This document shows, one piece after another, positions 31,938-43,920 of a stretch of DNA of 64,000 nt. Source of the DNA: Myxococcota bacterium (lineage in GTDB: Bacteria > Myxococcota_A > SURF-8). The number at the start of each line of letters is the position of its first letter. The stretch's first letter is position 1. The notes under the pieces were generated by a model. That model had not been told where the DNA came from. It saw only the letters and a list, made by a program, of their open reading frames with translations, and made no database searches. The stretch covers positions 4,800,001 to 4,864,000 of the forward strand of contig OZ223209.1 of NCBI GenBank assembly GCA_965140415.1, read 5' to 3'. The translations under genes were made by a program, and so were the position numbers.

Positions 31938-32846
31938 ATGTCTAAAATCAACGTGTTGCTTATCTTCGCGCTATTTACCCTTTTGCTGTTTCCATCCTGC
32001 TCGGAAGATGACGACAACTCACCCGATGGCGATAGCGATACATCAATAACCGACGGCGACGGAGAAAGCAGTCTCGATGGAGACACCGAAGTAGATGGCG
32101 ACAGCACAGTGACCGTTCACACCTGCGACGAAGCCTCGCCTTATGCCTTTACAACAGATACTGCCGTATTCGAAGGCTGGCAAGACGACTGCCGCAATTT
32201 CGAGGCGGTTTACAACGACCCGGAATTGACGGAATATCACCAGCAGATGGGCTATACCTGCTCACCGGTGCGGCTGAAACTGGAAGGCATCGGCGAAACG
32301 GTCTTTTGCGAAGTGGCCCGCGACGGCGCAACCGCCAGCGAAAGTTATTCCTGGCTCGGCCCGGGTTATGGCTGCGCCTGGGGACCGTCGGGCGGCGACG
32401 TGCGCACCGGCTGGCAGGCGGATGTGGGCGTCAACGATGCGGTTTGCCTCGGTGCCTGGACCGAACAGACGGCTCAAGTTCTGTTTGAACGCCATCAGCC
32501 GGAAACGAATTGTGAAGACATCGACGATTTACAGACCTGCATCACGGCACATCATCCACCTTATCACTGCAAACCGGTTTTCTCCTGGCCGATCGAATGG
32601 GATCAGGAAGAGTGCAACGTGCGCGGCTCAGAAGATCGCGTGGGAGCAGAACTGGACGAAGCGGAATTTCTGGCTTGCCGCACGGTCAAAGAAAACCACG
32701 ACAATTCAGATAATCACAGCGGAGAATCCTTCTTGGGGACGATTAAAAACGATCAGAGCGGCGTTTGTGTCGGAATTTCGGAATTTACCGGTTCCATTCC
32801 GGAAGGGTGGACAATCGTAAATTGCGATGACTGCACCACCCGCTAG
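31938..32846 (+). CDS. Hypothetical Cys-rich lipoprotein with DGD-rich tether
   Basis: Hydrophobic signal ending FPSC, DGD repeats, many Cys; no recognisable family. Confidence 0.7.
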   Translation: MSKINVLLIFALFTLLLFPSCSEDDDNSPDGDSDTSITDGDGESSLDGDTEVDGDSTVTVHTCDEASPYAFTTDTAVFEGWQDDCRNFEAVYNDPELTEYHQQMGYTCSPVRLKLEGIGETVFCEVARDGATASESYSWLGPGYGCAWGPSGGDVRTGWQADVGVNDAVCLGAWTEQTAQVLFERHQPETNCEDIDDLQTCITAHHPPYHCKPVFSWPIEWDQEECNVRGSEDRVGAELDEAEFLACRTVKENHDNSDNHSGESFLGTIKNDQSGVCVGISEFTGSIPEGWTIVNCDDCTTR

Positions 32847-32858
32847 CAAGGGGAGAAA

Positions 32859-33464
32859 TTATTCGATCATGCCCAGATTGCGTAGCATGCTTTCATTGGG
32901 CTCCAGATCGGGGAAAAGACCCGTCAAACTCTCGATGAGTTGCTTCAAGTCGAACGGTTTGGCCAGCACCGCATCCGCACCCAGGCGACGCATCTCCTCG
33001 ATCGCTTCCGGATAACCGGAAATCGCAAGAATTTTAACATTCTGGGTCGTCTCACCGCGTCGAATCGAAGCCAATACTTCCTTACCGTCGATGCGCGGCA
33101 TAAAGACATCAAGAATCACCAGGTCCGGAGCATGTGACCCGAGTTTCAAAATCGCATCGTAGCCGTTATTTTCCGTTTCAATTTCGATGCCTTCGAAGAG
33201 TTTATCCAAGGCGCGGCGTGTAAAGTCCAACACCGTGGGATCATCATCGACAATCATGACATCCAGTGCCGAAGAAATGATGCTACTATCGAGTTGGTGT
33301 TTTTCCATAAACGCCAGCAGATCTTCATACGTGACCTTCCAACCGCCCGTGATCGGGTGCTGAATGGCAGGAATGACACCCGTCTTAAAATAATGAGTTA
33401 CGGTTCGGCGTGGAATATCAAGCAGTTTTGAAATTTCGGTTCCGGAATAGGTGACCTTCTTCAT
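32859..33464 (-). CDS. Response regulator with N-terminal excisionase/MerR-like HTH and C-terminal receiver
   Basis: YSGTEISKLLDIPRRTV...G.IPA HTH; receiver IVDDD, LDVFMP, ISG, KPF all intact. Confidence 0.85.
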   Translation of the reverse strand: MKKVTYSGTEISKLLDIPRRTVTHYFKTGVIPAIQHPITGGWKVTYEDLLAFMEKHQLDSSIISSALDVMIVDDDPTVLDFTRRALDKLFEGIEIETENNGYDAILKLGSHAPDLVILDVFMPRIDGKEVLASIRRGETTQNVKILAISGYPEAIEEMRRLGADAVLAKPFDLKQLIESLTGLFPDLEPNESMLRNLGMIE

Positions 33465-33752
33465 TCTAATACTCTCCTATCCAACAACAACAAATCGCGG
33501 CACCGTGGCAAACCGGCGCTTATCAGTGAGCGCAGTATATCAGAAACATTTGTTTGCTCCAACACTATTCTGCTTTTTTGCCGATATGCCGGAGTGATTT
33601 TTTTTCATTATTTCTGTTATTGCAACTTCAGGGAGAAAAGAAGAAACGAACAGAAAATGCTTACTATTTGTACAACCTCCACCACAATCTGGAGAATTTT
33701 ACCCTATGGCAAAGAATGGTCTGTAGTCACAGGTACATACAGGCAAAAACGG

Positions 33753-36140
33753 TCAACTTCGATTGATAGCCTGCTCCAGGCGATGCTGCGTTTCTTCCGT
33801 GCCCAGCAGGGAAAGAAATCCCTCTCGCTCCAGTTCCAGCAAGGGTTCCTGTCCAATACGATCAGCAGAACTGACCTCACCGCCAGTAACCACTTTTGCC
33901 AAGTTCAACCCGACTTGCACATCATGTTCGTTGATCCGGCCCTTCCAATGCATCTCTTTCAACTGCTGCGAAATCACAATCGCCCCACCCGGTCCGGGTA
34001 GATTCATCGGATAGACGGGCGGTGGCCGATAACCACTGGAAATCAATTCCAGAACCAATTGCTTACTGTCGGCAAGTACCCGGTCCAATCCCATTGAGAT
34101 ATTATCGCCTCTGCGTAAAAATCCCATACGGCGTGCTTCGAAAGCTCCTTTGGCCCTCTGCGCGTGGAAGATGTGATCGAAGGCATATTGCGCCAACGGA
34201 TGCGGACCGTTGATCTGTACCCGCTCCAAGGCGCGATACAGCATTTCCTTGCAACCACCGCCGACGGGAATCAGGCCGAGTTGAGTTTCCGTCAAACCCA
34301 GGGTGGTATCGGCATGGGCTTGCACGCGACCGCAATGCATTGCCAGTTCAAGCCCGCCACTGCGCACGTTTCCGGAAATGGCAGCCACCACAGGAAATGG
34401 ACTGGAGCGGATCGTACTATTGAATTTCTGGCGAAATACCAATGATTTCTCGATAGTTTCCCAATTCTGTGCTTTCGCTTCGCCTAACAGCCAGCGCAAC
34501 TCCAGCCTAGACGGAAATTGGCCGCTGCTGGAACCGAGCACCAATCCCCGCAATCCGAGCGATATCACTTTTTCGTACATCCGCATCATGGCGGAAACGA
34601 ATTTGTCGCCGTAATAAGGCGGTTCACCATTCGGCAGGATTAGATCCAAACAGCCGACACCGTTTCCAAGGTCGTACAATAACGTGCCGTAATCCTCGGC
34701 GATGTCACCACTGCTGCTGCGAATTTCACTAAGCCGGATTTCCCCGGCGGGCATATGTACAGTAACCTGTTCCTTTTTCTCCAAGTAGACCTGTCTGCGC
34801 TGACCGCCTTTCATGGAGTAGAAACTCTGGTCTTTTTCCAGTATCTTCGTAACTTGTTCGGGAATCTCCAACCCATCTTTGGCCATACGCTCGGCGATTT
34901 GGGCCACCCCCAGCGCATCCCAGATTTCAAACGGTCCCAGATTCCAATTGTATCCCCAGCGCAATGCGCGATCGATCACGATTGGGTAATCGGAAATTTC
35001 ACCCAGAAGCGAAGCCGAATAAGCAAGCGTATCGCGCAGCAATTCCCAGGCGTAGCGTGCCCCCTCATCGTCACCTGCCATCAGCTTTCTCAAACGACGC
35101 CCCATGTCCTCGTCAGCCAGCGCCTTCGTAACAGAGGGGTAAAAGTCGGGTTTCTGTGGAACATATTCCATTGATCCATGCGCCAACGCCAACCTGCCGG
35201 GGCTGTCGTTGTCGGCGGGATGTTGGTAGAATCCGTGCCCCACCTTGTGGCCCAAATAGCGTTGTCGAAGCAAGTCGCGCAGTCTATCGGAGGGTTTGAA
35301 ATGATCGCGCCAGGCATCTTCAGGCAGCATGGCGTACATGCTCTCTAGAAACGCATTGAAGGAATCCACCCCCAAATAATCAATGGTACGATACGTTCCC
35401 GATGACGCTCGCGTAAGTGCCTGCCCGGTCAACAGATCACAGGTTACTACGGACATCCCACGCTCTTCCGCTTTTTGCATAGCGGTAGCCAGTCCGAACA
35501 AGCCGATGCGATTCGCAATAAATCCCGGCGTATCGCGAGCGATCAGCACACCTTTTCCCAAAGCATGCGCTCCGAAGTCCTGCATTTTATCCAGCAGATT
35601 ACCATCGGTTTGATGGCAGGGAACCAGTTCCAATAACCGAGTACGACGCACCGGATTAAAAAAGTGAGTAATCATAAAGCGGTTGGCAAAGGAATCGCTG
35701 CGCCCTTGCACCAACCGTTCGGCCTGAATTGTGGAAGTGATCGAACTGATCACGGCATCGGGGCGAATGTGCGGACCGACCTTGTCATAGGTGGCGCGTT
35801 TAACCTCCAACACTTCCGGCACCGCTTCCAGTACCCAGTCGCAATCTTCTATCAGATGGCGGTCGTCCACCAAATTTCCACAGGTCACCCGGCGGCGACT
35901 GTACGGATCGATGAAAGCACCGCGAGCGAACGCATCATCAACTGCCTGTTCGGCGGTGCGGTTGCGCCATTGAAGAGAATTCCGTGAAATACCGTTCTGA
36001 AGATCCTCATTTGAAGGCTCCGCCGGCGGCAGCATGTCAATCAATAGAATTTCGATTCCGGCACTGGCCAATAAGGCAGCCAGGCTTGATCCCATCCATC
36101 CCGCTCCGATGATTGCAGCTCGTTCGATGTCGAAACTCAT
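33753..36140 (-). CDS. fadN: FadN-like 3-hydroxyacyl-CoA dehydrogenase / enoyl-CoA hydratase fusion (divergent)
   Basis: GAGWMG, EAVPE...K, HFFNP, DTPGFIANRIG, GYNW.LGPFE.WD, crotonase GGLEL and TETQLGLIP.GGG. Confidence 0.85.
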   Translation of the reverse strand: MSFDIERAAIIGAGWMGSSLAALLASAGIEILLIDMLPPAEPSNEDLQNGISRNSLQWRNRTAEQAVDDAFARGAFIDPYSRRRVTCGNLVDDRHLIEDCDWVLEAVPEVLEVKRATYDKVGPHIRPDAVISSITSTIQAERLVQGRSDSFANRFMITHFFNPVRRTRLLELVPCHQTDGNLLDKMQDFGAHALGKGVLIARDTPGFIANRIGLFGLATAMQKAEERGMSVVTCDLLTGQALTRASSGTYRTIDYLGVDSFNAFLESMYAMLPEDAWRDHFKPSDRLRDLLRQRYLGHKVGHGFYQHPADNDSPGRLALAHGSMEYVPQKPDFYPSVTKALADEDMGRRLRKLMAGDDEGARYAWELLRDTLAYSASLLGEISDYPIVIDRALRWGYNWNLGPFEIWDALGVAQIAERMAKDGLEIPEQVTKILEKDQSFYSMKGGQRRQVYLEKKEQVTVHMPAGEIRLSEIRSSSGDIAEDYGTLLYDLGNGVGCLDLILPNGEPPYYGDKFVSAMMRMYEKVISLGLRGLVLGSSSGQFPSRLELRWLLGEAKAQNWETIEKSLVFRQKFNSTIRSSPFPVVAAISGNVRSGGLELAMHCGRVQAHADTTLGLTETQLGLIPVGGGCKEMLYRALERVQINGPHPLAQYAFDHIFHAQRAKGAFEARRMGFLRRGDNISMGLDRVLADSKQLVLELISSGYRPPPVYPMNLPGPGGAIVISQQLKEMHWKGRINEHDVQVGLNLAKVVTGGEVSSADRIGQEPLLELEREGFLSLLGTEETQHRLEQAINRS

Positions 36141-36153
36141 GCGCCCTCCGTGG

Positions 36154-37317
36154 CTATGACTGGCGTTCGATCACAAGCGCTTCTCCCTGGCCACCGAATA
36201 CACCCATGGTCAGCAGACCGAACTGTTGCTGACGCTGCTGCAATGCATGGGTTAACGTCACCAGCATACGCGCGCCCTCCGCACCGGTCGAATATCCCAG
36301 CGCGATCGAGCCACCATGGGGATTGACGCGGGAAATGTCGTGAATGTCCAATTGTTTGATGCAGCTTATGGCGCTAGCCGCGTGGCGCTCGTTGATTTCG
36401 AACACATCGACCTGATCCAAGCTCAATTCGGCTCGTTCCAATGCCCGCTTAGAGGAAGTGACAGCGGCCTGCACCGGCAGTTCCGGTGCACATCCGGCCA
36501 AAGCATAGCCGCGTATGCGAGCCAGCGGCGACACGCCCATCTTTTCGGCGGCCTCTTCGGACATCAACACAACCACAGCAGCGGCATCGCTGTCTACAGC
36601 GGAATTTCCGGTTGTGACCGTACCACCGGCCATGCAATATGGCGGCAGCTTGCCTAAATCGAACTCCTGGACTTCCTGCGGGTTTTCGTCTCGCAGCACG
36701 ATGCGATCCGCCCCTTTGCCTTGCTCCAGTTGAATCGGAACGACTTCCGTGGAGAAAAGCCCCTCCGACCAGGCTTTCAATGCCTTATTGTGCGATAAAG
36801 CCGCAAAACCATCTTGTTCTTTCCGGCTGATACCGTATTTATTGGCCGTGTTTTCCGCGCTGACACCCATCGGTGTCAATGCCTCGGGATAAACACTCAA
36901 CAAGTGAGGCGACAAGCTGGGATTAAAGCCCCCATTTGGCAACCGCGTCATGGATTCCACTCCGCCAGCCACAAAAATATCACCGAAACCGGCCTGAATG
37001 GAAGCCGCAGCATGCATCACCGCACTGAGTGAAGAAGCCCCATGGCGGCTGATGGTCGCAGCAGGAACCTGCACCGGGATTCCCGCCATAAGGGAAGAGC
37101 TTCGGGCAATATTCAACCCTTGTTCGCCTTCCGGAGTGCCACAGCCGATTAGCACGTCTTCGATGGTCTGCCAGTCGATTTGCGGCGTTCTGGCCAAGGC
37201 TTCCTTCAAGATGGAACTGAGAAGCATATCGGGACGATGGCCCGCGAATCGGCCTGTACCGGCTTTGCAGATCGGCGAACGCGTCGCCGAAACAATCACC
37301 ACATTTTTCATGGACAT
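36154..37317 (-). CDS. Thiolase-fold protein lacking canonical catalytic residues
   Basis: Full thiolase scaffold (PEGEQGLNIAR, AGGVESMT, GTVTTGNS..SD.AA, VNPHGGSIALG), but SRHGASS, NERHA, GYSTG and TMGVFGGQG at the catalytic positions. Confidence 0.85.
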   Translation of the reverse strand: MSMKNVVIVSATRSPICKAGTGRFAGHRPDMLLSSILKEALARTPQIDWQTIEDVLIGCGTPEGEQGLNIARSSSLMAGIPVQVPAATISRHGASSLSAVMHAAASIQAGFGDIFVAGGVESMTRLPNGGFNPSLSPHLLSVYPEALTPMGVSAENTANKYGISRKEQDGFAALSHNKALKAWSEGLFSTEVVPIQLEQGKGADRIVLRDENPQEVQEFDLGKLPPYCMAGGTVTTGNSAVDSDAAAVVVLMSEEAAEKMGVSPLARIRGYALAGCAPELPVQAAVTSSKRALERAELSLDQVDVFEINERHAASAISCIKQLDIHDISRVNPHGGSIALGYSTGAEGARMLVTLTHALQQRQQQFGLLTMGVFGGQGEALVIERQS

Positions 37318-37538
37318 TTTCCCTGCTGCTTAGATACTCCATTGGTCTGATCGTTGCAATTACCCTTTTGTTTATTACCAGATGCGCAGCCCGGACACAA
37401 GGGAAAGCTGAGTTGTTCTGTCGTCTGTAACAGAAAATCCCAGGTCGCTCCCGACGATGAAAGCGCTTTACACGGCTTTGGCTTTCCGCTACAACCGAGG
37501 CAGAGCACGAACCCTGTAGTCTAAGCATCGAGGACAGG

Positions 37539-38897
37539 ATGACCGATCTGTTTGAACATTCATTGAATGAATCGACCGAAGATGGCCCATTGGCGGCACG
37601 TATGCGCCCTCGCTCGCTGGCGGATTTCGTCGGCCAGGAACATATCGTTGGCGAAGGGAAATTCCTGCGTACAATGATCGCCCGCGATCAAATCCCCTCC
37701 CTGCTGTTCTGGGGACCGCCCGGATCGGGGAAAACCACTTTAGCCAGCGTAATCGCCAAAACCACGCGCTCGGATTTCCGTTTCTTTTCCGCGGTGTTAG
37801 GATCGATAAAGGAAGTCCGTGCTCTCATTGCCGAAGCACGGGAACGGAAAAAGTTCTTCAAGCGCCGCACGATTCTGTTCGTCGACGAGATCCATCGCTT
37901 CAATAAAGCCCAGCAGGACGCATTCCTGCCGCACGTCGAGCGGGGTACCATCACGTTGATCGGGGCAACCACCGAAAACCCCAGTTTCGAGGTAAACGCC
38001 GCGCTGCTGTCACGGATGAAAGTGCTGACGCTCAAGGCATTGAGTGCAGAACAGGTGGGCATCCTGGTGGAACGAGCACTTGCCGATGAAGCGCGCGGAT
38101 TGGGGAAGCTGGGTTTGCACCTGACCGATGAAGCCCGTCAATTGCTGACCCAAGCGGCGGAAGGCGATGCCAGACGGGCATTGACCACGCTGGAATCGGC
38201 GGCGGAATTAGCTCAGGCCAAGGGACATGACCTCATCGACGAGGAAATCGTGCGCGAAGCGCATCAGCGGCGTATGCTCAATTACGACAAATCGGGCGAA
38301 GAGCATTACAACATCGTTTCCGCGTTCATCAAAAGCCTGCGCGGCTCAGACCCGGATGCAGCCGTATATTGGATGACCCGAATGCTGGAGGCGGGGGAAG
38401 ACCCACTGTTTATCCTGCGTCGGATGGTCATTTTCGCCTCGGAAGATATCGGCTCTGCCGATCCGCTGGCGCTGCAAACGGCCATAGCAGCAACGGATTC
38501 CTTCCGCTTTATCGGCATGCCGGAGGGCGTACTGCCGATGAGCCAAGCCGCCACCTATCTGGCCTGCGCTCCGAAATCCAATAGCGCCTTGAAAGCCTAT
38601 ACCCGTGCGTTGAGCGACGTAAAACAGCATGGTGCCCTACCCACCCCCTTGCACATTCGCAACGCCCCAACCAAATTGATGAAATCACTGGGGTACGGCA
38701 AGGCCTACAAATATCCTCACAATTACGAAGGCCATTACGTACCGGAAAACTACCTGCCCGACGAATTGAAAGGGCGGCGCTATTACGAACCTTCCGAGCA
38801 AGGGATTGAAGCAACCATTAAACAGCGGCTGGATTCCTTGCGCGATGTAGAGGTTGCCTCCCCTTCCGAAGACGATTGGAAACCCGACCACGAATGA
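37539..38897 (+). CDS. rarA: Replication-associated recombination protein A (AAA+)
   Basis: PLAARMRP, WGPPGSGKTT, DEIHRFNKAQQD, ATTENPSF, SAFIKSLRGSDPD, EDIG. Confidence 0.96.
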   Translation: MTDLFEHSLNESTEDGPLAARMRPRSLADFVGQEHIVGEGKFLRTMIARDQIPSLLFWGPPGSGKTTLASVIAKTTRSDFRFFSAVLGSIKEVRALIAEARERKKFFKRRTILFVDEIHRFNKAQQDAFLPHVERGTITLIGATTENPSFEVNAALLSRMKVLTLKALSAEQVGILVERALADEARGLGKLGLHLTDEARQLLTQAAEGDARRALTTLESAAELAQAKGHDLIDEEIVREAHQRRMLNYDKSGEEHYNIVSAFIKSLRGSDPDAAVYWMTRMLEAGEDPLFILRRMVIFASEDIGSADPLALQTAIAATDSFRFIGMPEGVLPMSQAATYLACAPKSNSALKAYTRALSDVKQHGALPTPLHIRNAPTKLMKSLGYGKAYKYPHNYEGHYVPENYLPDELKGRRYYEPSEQGIEATIKQRLDSLRDVEVASPSEDDWKPDHE

Positions 38898-39547: not shown

Positions 39548-40315
39548 ATGCTGCTGGTCATTGATGTAGGCAATACCAATATCGTATTGGGCCTTTTTGA
39601 AGGGAACCGCCTGTTGCACAACTGGCGGATCGCCACCAAGAAAAATAAAACTGACGACGAATTCGGCATCCAGATTCGCCAGTTATTCCAGGCCGTTGGT
39701 CTTACGGAACCACAATTGGACAGCATTGCCATGGCCAGTGTCGTTCCACCGGTCAATGCCGTACTGGAAGCAGCGCTGAAAAAGTACTTTCATTTACAGC
39801 CGTTGGTCGTCGGTCCCGGCATCAAAACCGGGATGCCGATTCTCTACGACAACCCCAGGGAAGTCGGCGCGGATCGCATCGTCAACAGCGTCGGTGCCTA
39901 TGAAAAATGGCAACAAGGCTTGATCGTTGTGGACTTCGGCACCGCCACCACCTTCGACTGCGTCTCCCCGGAAGGGGAATACATGGGCGGCTGCATCTGT
40001 CCGGGCATCGGCATCAGCGCCGAGGCGCTTTTCATCCGGGCTTCCAAACTGCCGCGCGTGGAATTCTCCCCGCCGCCACACACGTTGGGGAAAAACACGG
40101 TGGATTCCATCCGCTCCGGACTGGTGTATGGTTATGTGGGTCTGGTTGACGGCATGGTGAAACGCCTGGTTTCGGAAATGGACTTCTCCCCCAAAGTGAT
40201 CGCCACCGGCGGCGAAGCAACAGTCATCGCCAAACATAGTGAAACAATCGAGGAAGTGGATCATACTCTGACCCTGCATGGATTGAGGATTATCGATGGA
40301 CTCAACCGAAAATAA
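39548..40315 (+). CDS. coaX: Type III pantothenate kinase
   Basis: IDVGNTN, ASVVP, EVGADR, VDFGTATTFD, GG.I.PG, IATGG, LTL.GL. Confidence 0.97.
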   Translation: MLLVIDVGNTNIVLGLFEGNRLLHNWRIATKKNKTDDEFGIQIRQLFQAVGLTEPQLDSIAMASVVPPVNAVLEAALKKYFHLQPLVVGPGIKTGMPILYDNPREVGADRIVNSVGAYEKWQQGLIVVDFGTATTFDCVSPEGEYMGGCICPGIGISAEALFIRASKLPRVEFSPPPHTLGKNTVDSIRSGLVYGYVGLVDGMVKRLVSEMDFSPKVIATGGEATVIAKHSETIEEVDHTLTLHGLRIIDGLNRK

Positions 40316-41555
40316 GCAACCGGACACCGAAAGCACTCCCGTCGACGGTGAAAGCTATCTTGCTGAACTGGGTGGCGTAGAAATTATCTACCAGCCCTTG
40401 CCGGATTCGGAAATTCCGCAGGATATCCAAAAAAACCTGGCTCCTGCGGCGGACGATGGTCGGCGCATGGTGCTGGCGCGCAACTTGACCCCCTTGCCGC
40501 CGCGTCAGATGGGTCTGACGCTCTACTGCCTGATGAACGACCCAAATCCGGCAGTGCGCAATGCCGCCGAAGACAGCTTCGACGATCTGCCGCCGAACCT
40601 GATCCGAACCTTGGCGGCTCAGGATCTGCCCGCCAATATGCTGGATTATCTGGCACGGAATTTCCACTCGGAAAACGATGACGATCAAATATTGGAAACC
40701 ATCGTTTTAAACCGCGCCACCGGTGTTGATACCCTGCTGCTTTTGGTTCGCGTTTCTTCGCCGAGAATCCTGGATCTGATCGGAAACAACCAGGTCCGCC
40801 TGCAACAATCCCCGCAACTGATTTCGGAATTTCCGAAGAATCCGCGTGTGACCATCGCACAGCTCTCCCGCGTACTGGAATTCGGGCGGCGTCAGAACCT
40901 GATCACCATCGATCAGGAAAATTTGCTGATCGATCAATTCCTGGGCAAACGGGAACCGGAAAAAGAACCGATCAAGGTTGAAGAAGTCGTCAAGGAAGTG
41001 GTAACCGAATCCGGTGAAGTGGATTGGGAATTCCCCTCTTTTCTGACGGCGGACTTCGAAGCGGATATGGAACTGGATGCAGAAGCCAGCGCCATCGAAG
41101 AAAAGATTTCCTCCAAAGTGAATCTGCGCGATCTGGTGCGCACGATGAGCGTGCCCCAGAAAATGCGTCTGGCCGTACGCGGCAACATGGAAGCCCGCAA
41201 AATTCTGATCGAAGATTCGCTTTCGCTGGTGGCCAAGCAGGTTCTCAGCAGTCCGCGCATCACGAAAACGGAAATCGAACGTGCAGCGGAGTCGCGCACG
41301 GTGGATGCGGAAGTGCTCGAATTGATCGCAAAAGACGCCTCGGCCACGCGCAACTACGCCGTGCGACACGCCTTGGTCACCAATCCAAAAACGCCGTTAC
41401 CCATCGCCAACAAAATGATGAACACGCTGATGGAGCGCGACATCAAAATCATTTCAAAAAGCCGCGCGGTGCCGCAGGCGATTCAAAGTATCGCCCGCCA
41501 GAAAATCGACGCCCAGGAACAGCGCCGCAAAAAGCGCATGAAGAAGAAAAAATAG
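40296..41555 (+). CDS. Alpha-solenoid (HEAT/LRV-like repeat) hypothetical protein
   Basis: Repeated NP.T/P units (NPRVT, SPRIT, NPKTP), QKMRLAVRGNMEARKILI; overlaps the coaX stop. Confidence 0.65.
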   Translation: MDSTENKQPDTESTPVDGESYLAELGGVEIIYQPLPDSEIPQDIQKNLAPAADDGRRMVLARNLTPLPPRQMGLTLYCLMNDPNPAVRNAAEDSFDDLPPNLIRTLAAQDLPANMLDYLARNFHSENDDDQILETIVLNRATGVDTLLLLVRVSSPRILDLIGNNQVRLQQSPQLISEFPKNPRVTIAQLSRVLEFGRRQNLITIDQENLLIDQFLGKREPEKEPIKVEEVVKEVVTESGEVDWEFPSFLTADFEADMELDAEASAIEEKISSKVNLRDLVRTMSVPQKMRLAVRGNMEARKILIEDSLSLVAKQVLSSPRITKTEIERAAESRTVDAEVLELIAKDASATRNYAVRHALVTNPKTPLPIANKMMNTLMERDIKIISKSRAVPQAIQSIARQKIDAQEQRRKKRMKKKK

Positions 41556-41568
41556 AAAGCGAAACCGG

Positions 41569-43920
41569 ATGACGATTCGAGAATTGAAGCCCGAGCAATT
41601 GCGCGCACGCTGTAGCGCCGACAAAATGTCCTTCACCTCAACCGAACAAGTCAAGGAGTTGAAAGGCTCCATCGGCCAGGAACGCGCCATCCGCGCCATG
41701 CAGTTCGGACTCTCCAATAAAATGAAAGGGTTCAATATCTTCATCCTGGGCGATCCGGGTGCAGGTAAAACCTCGACCTTGCGTAATATCCTGATCGGCA
41801 AAGCGAAGCAGGAACCCAAGCCGCCGGATTGGATTTACGTTCACAATTTCGACGACGAAAACCGACCGCTGGCCTACCGCATGCCGGCGGGTAGCGGACA
41901 GCAGTTTAAAAAAGATATGGCCACCTTCGTTTCGGAACTGAAACGGATCATTCCGAAATTGCAGGAAGGCGAAGGCTACCTGCAATTGGGGCAACGCATC
42001 GAAGATAATTACCGCAAACGGGAAGAGGCGGCGCTGGCCAAGCTGCAACGCATCGGCAAGAAAAACGAGTTGCACATCGAACAGGTGTCCGGTGAACTGC
42101 TGATTCAGGTCGTGCGCGACGGTCACACGCTGGATCATGAGGAATTCGAGCAACTCACCAATGAGGAACGACGTTACTACGAGGAAAAAGTCCGCTCCAT
42201 CCATGAGGACATCGGCGAATTTCTGCGCGTGCAACGCCGCCTGGAGCGGGAAAAGCAGGAAAAAGTCCAGAAACTGGATCACGATCAGATCTTGAACCAC
42301 ACCGAAGAACTGGTGGCTGAACTGAAAAAACGTTACCAGAAAGTCGATGGTGTAAGCGGATGGCTGCACCAGATGTGGCAGTACATCCCGGATGCATTCA
42401 GGGACTATCAACTCGCCCAGGAAGCCCTGGAAAGCCCGATGGAAATGCCCTCGATGCCGCCGAGCCTGCCGGACTTCCAACAGTTTCAGGTGAATCTGCT
42501 GGTGAACAACAAAGACACCGTAGGTGCGCCGGTCGTTTTCGAAAACACGCCCACCTACCACAATCTGCTGGGTTGCGTGGAATACCAGGAACACTACGGA
42601 GTGTTATCGACGGACTTGACACTCGTGCGCGCCGGAGCCTTGCACCGCGCCAACGGAGGCTATCTGGTGATTCAGGTGAACGACCTGATGAAAAGCATGT
42701 ACGCTTGGGATGCGCTGAAGAAGTCGTTGCGCAACAAGGAAGTGCTGATCGACGAATTGGATATCGAAGCGCGTACGCGCTCCACCGTCAGCCCGAAACC
42801 CGCTGCAATTCCGTTACAGGTGAAAGTCATCCTGATCGGCAACTACGACGCCTATTATTTTCTGCTGAACTACGACGAGGATTTCTCGCGTCTGTTCAAG
42901 GTCAAGGCGGAATTCGACGACGTGGTTCCGCGCACCCGCAGCAACATCGCCAAATATGCCGGATTCATCAGCCGTCTGGTGCGCGAAGACAACCTGCTGC
43001 CCTTCCACGCCACCGCCATCGCCAAGATCATCGAGCAATGCTCGCGTATCGCCGAGCATCAAAACAAAATGAGCGCCCGCTTCATCCACCTGATCAACCT
43101 GGTCAGCGAAGCTAATTACTGGGCGGATTCCGAAGGAGCCAGGCAGGTCAAAGGAAGCCATGTTTCCATGGCGATCAAAGAGCGCAAGTGTCGCATGGGT
43201 AAAATCGAGGCCGACGTTTACGACCAGATCCGTGAAGGCACGGTGCTGATCGACACTCGTAAAAAAGTGGTTGGGCAAATCAACGGCATCGCCGTGTACG
43301 ACATGGGTGACCACGCATTCGGTATCCCTTCGCGCATCACCGCGCAAACCTACGCCGGGCGGCAGGGAATTTTGAACATCGACCGCGAAGCGGATCTGGC
43401 GGGAAAGATTCACAACAAGGCCGCATTGATCCTGATCGGTATTATCGGCAATCTCTACGCACAAAAACGCCCGCTGTCGCTGTCTGCGTCGATCGGCTTC
43501 GAGCAGATGTACGGAGAGGTGGACGGCGACTCGGCCAGTTGTGCGGAGCTGTTTGCACTGCTCTCCTCGCTTTCCAACGTTCCGGTGGATCAAGGTATCT
43601 GTGTAACAGGCTCCTTGAATCAGAAAGGCGAAGTTCAGCCCATCGGTGGAGTCAACGAAAAGATCGAAGGCGTCTATCACATTTGCAAAGCCAAAGGTCT
43701 GACCGGCAAGCAGGGAGTGGTGATTCCGCAGAAAAACAAGGTGAACCTGATGCTGGACGAGGAAGTCGTAGAAGCGGTGGAAAAGGGTAAATTCCACGTC
43801 TGGACGATCCGCAACATCAATGAAGGCATCCACATCATGCTGGGAGAAAGTCCCGCTAAAATTCACCAACTGGTGCGGAAACGATTAGGGCAACTGCACT
43901 CGGCGTTGGCGGAAGAATAG
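41569..43920 (+). CDS. LonC/LonB-like protease (AAA_32 + S16 protease domain)
   Basis: IGQERA, GDPGAGKT, GALHRANGGYL, DGDSAS (Ser), PIGGVNEKIEG (Lys). Confidence 0.9.
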   Translation: MTIRELKPEQLRARCSADKMSFTSTEQVKELKGSIGQERAIRAMQFGLSNKMKGFNIFILGDPGAGKTSTLRNILIGKAKQEPKPPDWIYVHNFDDENRPLAYRMPAGSGQQFKKDMATFVSELKRIIPKLQEGEGYLQLGQRIEDNYRKREEAALAKLQRIGKKNELHIEQVSGELLIQVVRDGHTLDHEEFEQLTNEERRYYEEKVRSIHEDIGEFLRVQRRLEREKQEKVQKLDHDQILNHTEELVAELKKRYQKVDGVSGWLHQMWQYIPDAFRDYQLAQEALESPMEMPSMPPSLPDFQQFQVNLLVNNKDTVGAPVVFENTPTYHNLLGCVEYQEHYGVLSTDLTLVRAGALHRANGGYLVIQVNDLMKSMYAWDALKKSLRNKEVLIDELDIEARTRSTVSPKPAAIPLQVKVILIGNYDAYYFLLNYDEDFSRLFKVKAEFDDVVPRTRSNIAKYAGFISRLVREDNLLPFHATAIAKIIEQCSRIAEHQNKMSARFIHLINLVSEANYWADSEGARQVKGSHVSMAIKERKCRMGKIEADVYDQIREGTVLIDTRKKVVGQINGIAVYDMGDHAFGIPSRITAQTYAGRQGILNIDREADLAGKIHNKAALILIGIIGNLYAQKRPLSLSASIGFEQMYGEVDGDSASCAELFALLSSLSNVPVDQGICVTGSLNQKGEVQPIGGVNEKIEGVYHICKAKGLTGKQGVVIPQKNKVNLMLDEEVVEAVEKGKFHVWTIRNINEGIHIMLGESPAKIHQLVRKRLGQLHSALAEE

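Follow-up and report, generated by a model that had tools for sequence, protein, structure and literature searches.

The stretch of DNA analysed here, called the window throughout, comprises 64,000 nucleotides of a Myxococcota bacterium (assembly GCA_965140415.1, contig OZ223209.1, positions 4,800,001 to 4,864,000), whose genome, G000, is a single contig of 5.98 Mb. Two adjacent genes on its reverse strand are the subject of this study. P0001, an open frame of 387 codons, encodes a thiolase-fold protein with altered catalytic fingerprints, and the gene directly downstream encodes a FadN-like protein (Table 1).

Table 1 Features of the P0001 locus in window coordinates
Feature	Position	Strand	Basis
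P0001, thiolase-fold gene, putative pseudoenzyme	36154..37317	-	Open reading frame and translation, Pfam, TIGR01930, AlphaFold2 model, Foldseek
SRHGAS (residues 90-95) replacing the NRxCxS nucleophile fingerprint	37033..37050	-	Alignments
L280-P281-V282 replacing the VMG fingerprint	36472..36480	-	Column analysis, comparison with the genome's other thiolases
NERH (residues 309-312) replacing NEAF	36382..36393	-	Alignments
GYS (residues 341-343) replacing GHP, with Tyr342 for the oxyanion-hole His	36289..36297	-	Alignments
GVFGG (residues 372-376) replacing CxGGG, with Gly372 for the acid/base Cys	36190..36204	-	Alignments
Spacer of 13 bp containing a GGAGG Shine-Dalgarno sequence, 5 nt ahead of the FadN-like start codon (ATG)	36141..36153	-	Sequence
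FadN-like partner, 795 amino acids	33753..36140	-	Pfam/NCBIfam, alignments
Divergent intergenic region between P0001 (-) and rarA/mgsA (+)	37318..37538		Open reading frames, Pfam, promoter scan

P0001, its partner and the rest of the genome

Sequence and predicted fold both place P0001 in the classical thiolase family. The Pfam domains Thiolase_N (PF00108, 6.1e-58) and Thiolase_C (PF02803, 1.1e-31) together cover its full length, and with the subfamily model TIGR01930 it scores 358.9 bits, above the cut-off of 240.55. The protein falls below the cut-off of every equivalog-level NCBIfam model, the FadA model NF006510 (310.2 against 519) and TIGR02445 (279.9 against 591) among them. The AlphaFold2 model has a mean predicted local distance difference test (pLDDT) score of 95.1 and a predicted template modelling (TM) score of 0.95. 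Its top Foldseek matches are classical thiolases at TM scores of 0.90-0.96, the nearest being 8gqf (0.94/0.96, root-mean-square deviation 1.3) and the complex-forming FadA 1wdk_C (0.95/0.94, root-mean-square deviation 1.6). Translation could also begin at the second ATG (Met3, 37311; window 37311-37317), because the orthologues begin with MxxVV; the product would then have 385 amino acids, as in the homologue P0002.

The five thiolase fingerprints and their roles were defined for the Zoogloea ramigera enzyme (Cys89, Asn316, His348, Cys378), as set out in the available part of PMC3406046. We aligned P0001 to the solved thiolases 1ulq and 8gqf and to its 119 best database homologues, and found that none of the fingerprints of active thiolases (CxS, NEAF, GHP, CxG and VMG) is retained. 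Gly93 (codon 37039-37041) occupies the place of the nucleophilic cysteine; NERH keeps the Asn and Glu of NEAF and exchanges Ala for Arg and Phe for His; and the fifth region reads PELPVQAA (278-285) where the canonical form is PE-x-MG-x-GP, or PEVMGIGP. These changes are not a matter of chance, since the catalytic quartet Cys/Asn/His/Cys (C/N/H/C) is kept in 117 of the 119 homologues, drawn from a search of 5.8 billion proteins, and since each of the three other thiolases of G000 carries all five fingerprints. Identity of P0001 to active thiolases amounts to 40-49%.

The downstream protein has the layout of FadN, with an N-terminal 3-hydroxyacyl-CoA (coenzyme A) dehydrogenase and a C-terminal crotonase domain. 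In G000 its dehydrogenase catalytic residues are kept, and in the crotonase domain the oxyanion motif FSVGANL has become FPSRLEL with both glutamates retained. The short spacer and its Shine-Dalgarno sequence point to a two-gene operon, P0001 followed by the FadN-like gene, and the divergent intergenic region upstream presumably carries its promoter. A consensus scan of 32700-37700 was uninformative, with five promoter-like matches against 4.3 expected and four terminator-like matches against 5.4 expected, nothing above chance. PADLOC returned no defence-family match for P0001 and only a marginal E1-E2 match for the FadN-like partner (E 0.0033).

Elsewhere in the genome, 575 kb from the P0001 locus, lies a canonical operon of fadN (795 amino acids), fadA (396 amino acids) and a gene for a 590-residue protein (G000:4256953-4262525). 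The set is completed near 4.237 Mb by a cluster of thiolase, dehydrogenase and crotonase genes, and at 2.868 Mb by a third thiolase; with three thiolases that carry all fingerprints, one of them in the canonical operon, thiolysis is thus covered elsewhere in the genome. The local FadN-like protein aligns over its full length to the canonical FadN at 31% identity. We rejected an origin of P0001 by simple tandem duplication of the resident fadA, as the FadA of G000 belongs to another subclade and the FadN copies share only 31% identity.

The first-pass annotation had described an intact thiolase gene with four rewritten catalytic motifs, 13 bp from a fadN-like gene, and each of these statements is borne out here; the canonical fadN-fadA pair that it suggested looking for elsewhere in the genome exists. 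Its concern about assembly error is answered in part. The contig of run X1 matches the whole stretch with 0 differences, X1 probably being the source assembly itself, but coverage by runs X2 and X3, which belong to that study too, is partial and leaves out 36978-37364, which includes the Gly93 codon. Run X2 also contains a low-depth contig with a 4-base GATC insertion at window position 34174, within the FadN-like gene. As several loose ends in X2 start with GATC, the insertion looks like a library-junction artefact, not a variant.

A clade of degenerate thiolases with a constant partner

Only two of the 119 best homologues, P0002 and P0015, depart from C/N/H/C. P0002 is 49% identical to P0001 and reads NRYDAS, CEKY, GYP and GVRGG at the four motifs. 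Orthologues also occur in three genomes of the same family as G000 (G001, at 50% identity, G003 and G005) and in two others of its order (G006 and G009); the nearest relatives of P0001 thus stand at 49-50% identity. Each of these orthologues has a different set of replacements, and the motifs at the NEAF position alone include CEKY, GEQT, SEQF, HEGY and HETS. The frame is intact, with no internal stops, in P0001 and in every orthologue.

A profile made from eight degenerate sequences splits the ten available genomes of the order into six that score 554-611 bits and four at or below 350 bits, the high scores of the six being partly due to the construction of the profile. Among 401 genomes sampled from the phylum, none beyond those six scored above 441 bits. 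Two more members, P0122 and P0125, came from a HMMER search of 1.84 billion cluster representatives, and one, L172, from a scan of metagenomes. The clade now comprises about 11 clusters, from six of the ten genomes of one order and from a few metagenome contigs, and it spans at least four genera of that order in addition to the contigs.

Phylogenetic analysis groups all 11 sequences as one clade with a Shimodaira-Hasegawa-like approximate likelihood ratio test (SH-aLRT) value of 98, in a quick IQ-TREE run (LG+G4, 82 rows, no approximately unbiased test) in which many branches are long; the first eight sequences had been grouped with a value of 100. The nearest active relatives of the clade are short thiolases of about 385 amino acids, and the genome's own FadA falls in a different subclade. 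No member keeps all four catalytic residues together, and every position is variable. Across the 11 members, the nucleophile position reads G/D/C/D/E/C/E/E/E/D/D, the Asn position N/C/S/G/E/G/Y/H/H/H/H, the His position Y/Y/H/S/H/Y/R/C/C/N/H and the acid/base Cys position G/G/G/C/N/A/G/S/S/P/P. P0001 alone retains the Asn of NEAF, which is absent from the 10 other members, and its own His92, His312 and Tyr342 are unconserved even within this clade.

The nucleophile, the acid/base cysteine or both are also missing from other thiolase-family cluster representatives of metagenomic origin (P0130, P0136, P0146, P0187, P0200, P0223 and P0234), whose nucleophile position is often Asp, Glu or His. Degenerate representatives such as P0200, P0223 and P0234 lie outside the core clade in a FastTree tree, and in the IQ-TREE analysis two of P0130, P0136, P0146 and P0187 group with the clade one node further out (SH-aLRT 99). 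Judging from these sequences, the loss of thiolase catalytic residues seems to be recurrent, with several independent events in environmental bacteria.

The pairing with a FadN-like gene is strict. At all seven loci with downstream DNA (G000, G001, the P0002 contigs, L172, G005, G006 and G009), a same-strand FadN-like or crotonase-only gene lies 3' of the degenerate thiolase. Four of the seven loci have a full-length partner comprising both dehydrogenase and crotonase; in G005, G006 and G009 it is reduced to a crotonase of 340-390 amino acids. The G003 contig ends within the start of the partner, so that only a fragment adjoins the thiolase gene there. Within the order, the partner type is present in all six genomes with the degenerate thiolase and in none of the four without it; the partner profiles were made from five of these sequences, so that high scores are expected by construction, and the G003 fragment lies outside the model. 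Among active relatives the gene order is the reverse of that at P0001, with fadN upstream of the thiolase gene at 22 of 24 loci of the phylum. The 79 genome_contigs loci among the matches listed have fadN upstream in 63 cases, downstream in 1, on the opposite strand in 3 and nowhere in the flank in 12. The single downstream case, L155 from a Cytophagales metagenome-assembled genome, is the only C/N/H/C thiolase with a downstream fadN homologue among those 79, and it may represent an intermediate gene order.

The crotonase domain of the partner is itself eroded, in a mosaic fashion. Its oxyanion motif F-x-x-G-A-N is changed in all lineages but G005; the first catalytic Glu is absent in the partners of G005, G006 and G009, and the second in those of G001 and the P0002 contig. 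The dehydrogenase is better preserved. GxGxxG, HFFNP, Glu and Asn are kept in the G000, G001 and P0002-contig partners, the L172 partner has His replaced by Gln, and His/Glu/Asn are accordingly kept in three of the four fused partners.

A prediction of the complex between P0001 and partner residues 470-795 gave scores of 0.32, 0.37 and 0.50 (median 0.37), with a best control of 0.01, a result that we class as weak support. Of 80 solved complexes 58 attain the mark for that class, as do 2 of 110 mismatched pairs; at scores of 0.60 or less, those attaining it are only 7 of the 80 solved complexes plus both of the passing mismatches. Contact agreement between runs was at least 82%, and the partner pLDDT at least 88. 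Complexes of the FadA-FadB type have been solved (1wdk, 4b3h).

To separate what the clade has kept from what it has lost, we compared eight degenerate sequences with 41 active relatives over 110 columns conserved in at least 90% of the latter, counting a column as kept when at least seven of the eight retained it and as largely lost when at most 50% did. The eight keep 62 of the 110 columns and largely lose 35. The lost columns include all the fingerprints together with M150, T153, R214, A236, S240 and the PExMGxGP loop; S240 has become Ala in seven of the eight, and R214 is variable. With 62 columns held and 35 lost, the scaffold therefore appears to be under selection and the active-site region to be released from it.

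Selection was also estimated from the ratio of nonsynonymous to synonymous substitution rates (dN/dS) between the congeners G006 and G009. The degenerate thiolase gave 0.08 (386 codons, dS 1.37), the partner gene 0.26 and a canonical thiolase used as control 0.063. The value of 0.14 for the G003-G005 pair was not relied on, as it is saturated at dS 2.37. A conserved scaffold with a released active site is the pattern of a pseudoenzyme, and corresponds neither to decay nor to a new, fixed catalytic set.

Genes around the pair

No neighbour outside the pair is kept across the loci of relatives that were compared. In G001 (L032:6427-8577) and on the P0002 contig (L171:2616-4766), the pair is immediately preceded, in the same orientation, by a gene for a 716-residue RelA/SpoT homologue. 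The G000 orthologue of this homologue (57% identity) is encoded at a distance from the pair, at G000:1909297-1911441, and the link is likewise absent in G005, G006 and G009. A DUF975 gene is found downstream of the pair only in G006 and G009. Only in G005 is the pair followed by genes for an AAA_21/AAA_15 ATPase (389 amino acids) and a DUF4276 protein (208 amino acids; L034:2115-3907), which together resemble a two-gene cassette of defence type. In G001 the FadN-like gene is immediately followed by seven tandem open reading frames of 184-196 amino acids each, on the minus strand (L032:12324-16614), which look like an array of paralogues.

In the window itself, 288 bp downstream of the FadN-like gene, a response-regulator gene (32859-33464, minus strand) encodes a 201-residue protein with an unusual layout, in which an N-terminal HTH_17 domain precedes a C-terminal receiver; the HTH part matches PADLOC mad1 at 4.7e-8. 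On the plus strand, an open reading frame of 419 amino acids with no Pfam or NCBIfam match (40296-41555) lies immediately 5' of a gene for a 783-residue LonB/LonC-like AAA protease (41569-43920; AAA_32, LonC_helical and Lon_C). Their spacing suggests an operon.

Interpretation and comparison with known systems

On balance, P0001 is probably a non-catalytic thiolase-fold subunit that selection maintains as a partner of the FadN-like protein encoded next to it, within a derived module that no longer performs thiolysis. Its catalytic residues are lost where homologues keep them, it is conserved across species, and purifying selection acts on its sister lineage, which are the hallmarks of a pseudoenzyme. 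We envisage P0001 as a dead descendant of a FadA-type degradative thiolase that retained the fold. The loss of the nucleophilic and acid/base cysteines, the oxyanion-hole His, NEAF, VMG and several conserved loop columns would preclude both thiolysis and Claisen condensation, and the protein probably no longer binds acyl-CoA in the canonical manner. The pair would derive from a fadN/fadA beta-oxidation module with inverted gene order, in which the thiolase site has gone and the hydratase site has eroded, with most hydratase capacity lost. The chemistry still apparently intact in the G000 pair would be that of an NAD-dependent 3-hydroxyacyl-CoA dehydrogenase, possibly with hydration, and the pair by itself could not complete one turn of beta-oxidation.

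Several observations weigh against the view of P0001 as a non-catalytic subunit. The subclade of G000 and P0002 keeps similar character at positions 92, 311, 312 and 342 (H/Y, R/K, H/Y and Y), and 7 of the 11 members carry Asp or Glu at the nucleophile position, where P0001 has Gly; this recurrence in the alignment could reflect a shared functional substitution and not drift. The predicted complex scored weakly, and its pass may reflect likeness to the solved FadA-FadB complexes and not a property of the P0001 pair. The dN/dS estimate comes from the G006/G009 lineage and not from the branch of G000, whose nearest relative is 49-50% identical. Several of the lost loop-domain columns, moreover, are ones that we take to be CoA/pantetheine contacts, so that the proposed loss of CoA binding depends on sequence columns combined with presumed structural roles.

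These same columns bear on the idea that P0001 is a repurposed enzyme with new acyl-CoA chemistry, such as an Ltp2/Sal-like retro-aldol cleavage or a decarboxylation of the kind reported for TbSLP, served by the hydratase of the partner. The scaffold under purifying selection, the Tyr342 common to G000, P0002 and P0015, the similar character at 92, 311 and 312 in G000 and P0002 and the frequent Asp/Glu at the nucleophile position would all fit it, and thiolase-fold aldolases with tyrosine catalysts do exist (described in the available part of PMC12329534). We nevertheless regard such chemistry as improbable. None of the candidate catalytic residues is shared throughout the clade, position 93 of P0001 itself is Gly and neither Asp nor Glu, the presumed CoA contacts are lost (S240, R214), and the hydratase residues of the partner are eroded in most lineages. 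By its best matches P0001 also appears to lie within the classical thiolases, not on the SCP2/Ltp2 branch, and it has no DUF35 or MaoC partner. Of the first-pass proposal of either new chemistry or a pseudoenzyme complex, the part that fits the data is the pseudoenzyme or scaffold acting with the FadN-like protein; the new-chemistry option is the less likely of the two. Its more specific suggestions, that targeted changes had created new His and Tyr catalysts and that hydratase and retro-aldolase formed a route, find no backing in the variability of His92, His312 and Tyr342 across the 11 members, the absence of Ltp2/Sal features and the erosion of the hydratase site itself. The homologues that it proposed to look for were found, as a clade linked to the FadN-like gene at all seven loci with downstream DNA, but they differ by lineage in the RHG/NERH/GYS/MGV motifs that it expected them to share.

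CLF, the chain-length factor, is a non-catalytic paralogue in the wider thiolase superfamily that pairs with an active one. P0001 could by analogy be a regulatory paralogue that forms a heterodimer with an active thiolase and tunes it, as in ketosynthase-CLF pairs or prozymes, its position next to the FadN-like gene being secondary. Three active-looking thiolases are available in the genome, and thiolases are obligate dimers according to the available part of PMC3406046. The strictly conserved neighbour is, however, the crotonase/FadN-like gene, which is co-present in 6/6 and co-absent in 4/4 genomes, and in the tree the clade does not have the FadA of G000 as its sister, so that we see little likelihood in this alternative. 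Slightly more doubtful still is a ligand-sensing or scaffold module in which the pair binds a ligand (acyl-CoA, NAD(H) or a lipid) without converting it, and acts in signalling or in the organisation of other proteins. The NAD-binding and dehydrogenase residues kept in three of four fused partners are compatible with such a role, as are the relA/spoT gene upstream in G001 and on the P0002 contig and the response-regulator gene downstream in the window. Against this, relA/spoT is unlinked in G000 (at 1.909 Mb), G005, G006 and G009, no outside neighbour is conserved, the presumed CoA contacts are lost, and neither protein has a DNA-binding or signalling domain in Pfam or NCBIfam. A decaying gene, or a sequencing or assembly artefact without function, is very improbable and largely refuted. 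The loss of all catalytic residues is what decay would first produce, and the Gly93 codon lies outside the read coverage of X2 and X3; yet the frames are intact throughout, the clade occurs in at least four genera and on metagenome contigs, 62 of 110 conserved columns are kept with a confident structural model, and the Shine-Dalgarno sequence couples P0001 to its partner gene. Clade conservation, intact frames and the dN/dS of 0.08 in the congeneric pair together led us to reject recent decay, in agreement with the first-pass annotation.

Among known systems, the closest is FadA with FadN of the Bacillus-type fadN-fadA-fadE operon (TIGR01930). P0001 shares with it the fold, the sequence family and the pairing with a dehydrogenase-first, crotonase-second protein. 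It differs in lacking all five fingerprints, in preceding the fadN-like gene and in scoring below the equivalog cut-offs, and no acyl-CoA dehydrogenase gene corresponding to fadE follows the pair among the open reading frames and Pfam matches of the window. With Ltp2 and Sal it has in common a thiolase-superfamily fold without catalytic cysteines, a hydratase-type neighbour and a tyrosine in the active-site region. The available part of PMC12329534 describes Ltp2 and Sal as separate clades, distant from thiolases, that carry a YDHF or YDCY motif and bind the DUF35 zinc-finger of a MaoC hydratase. P0001, by contrast, reads NERH at that position, and its Tyr and His are unconserved in the orthologues. 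A Pfam search of both neighbours for DUF35 or MaoC found neither, only 3HCDH and ECH downstream and MgsA upstream. The best sequence and fold matches of P0001, in family profiles, alignments to solved structures and Foldseek, are all classical thiolases. With motif and DUF35 partner missing, we rejected membership of P0001 in the Ltp2/Sal group.

MsTLP1 of Mycobacterium smegmatis is a thiolase-fold protein without catalytic residues, in which the nucleophilic Cys is replaced by Gly; it has no thiolase activity and is described as of unknown function in the available part of PMC3406046. According to the same text it occurs as a monomer, shares about 15% identity with thiolase and carries a YSCF motif and an additional C-terminal beta-barrel domain. 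Gly at the nucleophile position is shared with P0001, which in contrast has 387 amino acids, no extra domain, 40-49% identity to active thiolases and a fixed operon partner. P0001 would be a much younger offshoot than MsTLP1, given 40-49% against about 15% identity to thiolases. A dead FadA-type thiolase with FadN as its partner was not described in any paper found by our literature search. Dead thiolase-fold proteins are thus already known; what differs here is a young FadA-type offshoot locked to a FadN-like partner in inverted gene order, with lineage-wise erosion of both.

Beyond the non-catalytic subunit that we favour, a more speculative extension, to which we give a rather low probability, would see the pair as a "ghost" beta-oxidation module exapted outside fatty-acid breakdown. 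It might stop the cycle at 3-ketoacyl-CoA, in the formation of beta-keto or methyl-ketone lipids or signals, or serve as a scaffold responsive to acyl-CoA or NAD(H), and the recurrent Asp/Glu would then mark a function shared by the clade.

Automatic annotation would label P0001 as acetyl-CoA C-acyltransferase and would read the pair as a beta-oxidation operon, and metabolic reconstructions would count a thiolase that does not work. The clade represents an unusually young dead enzyme, in which both partners stand at different stages of erosion in each lineage, and it lends itself well to the question of why multienzyme complexes retain subunits that have no catalytic function.

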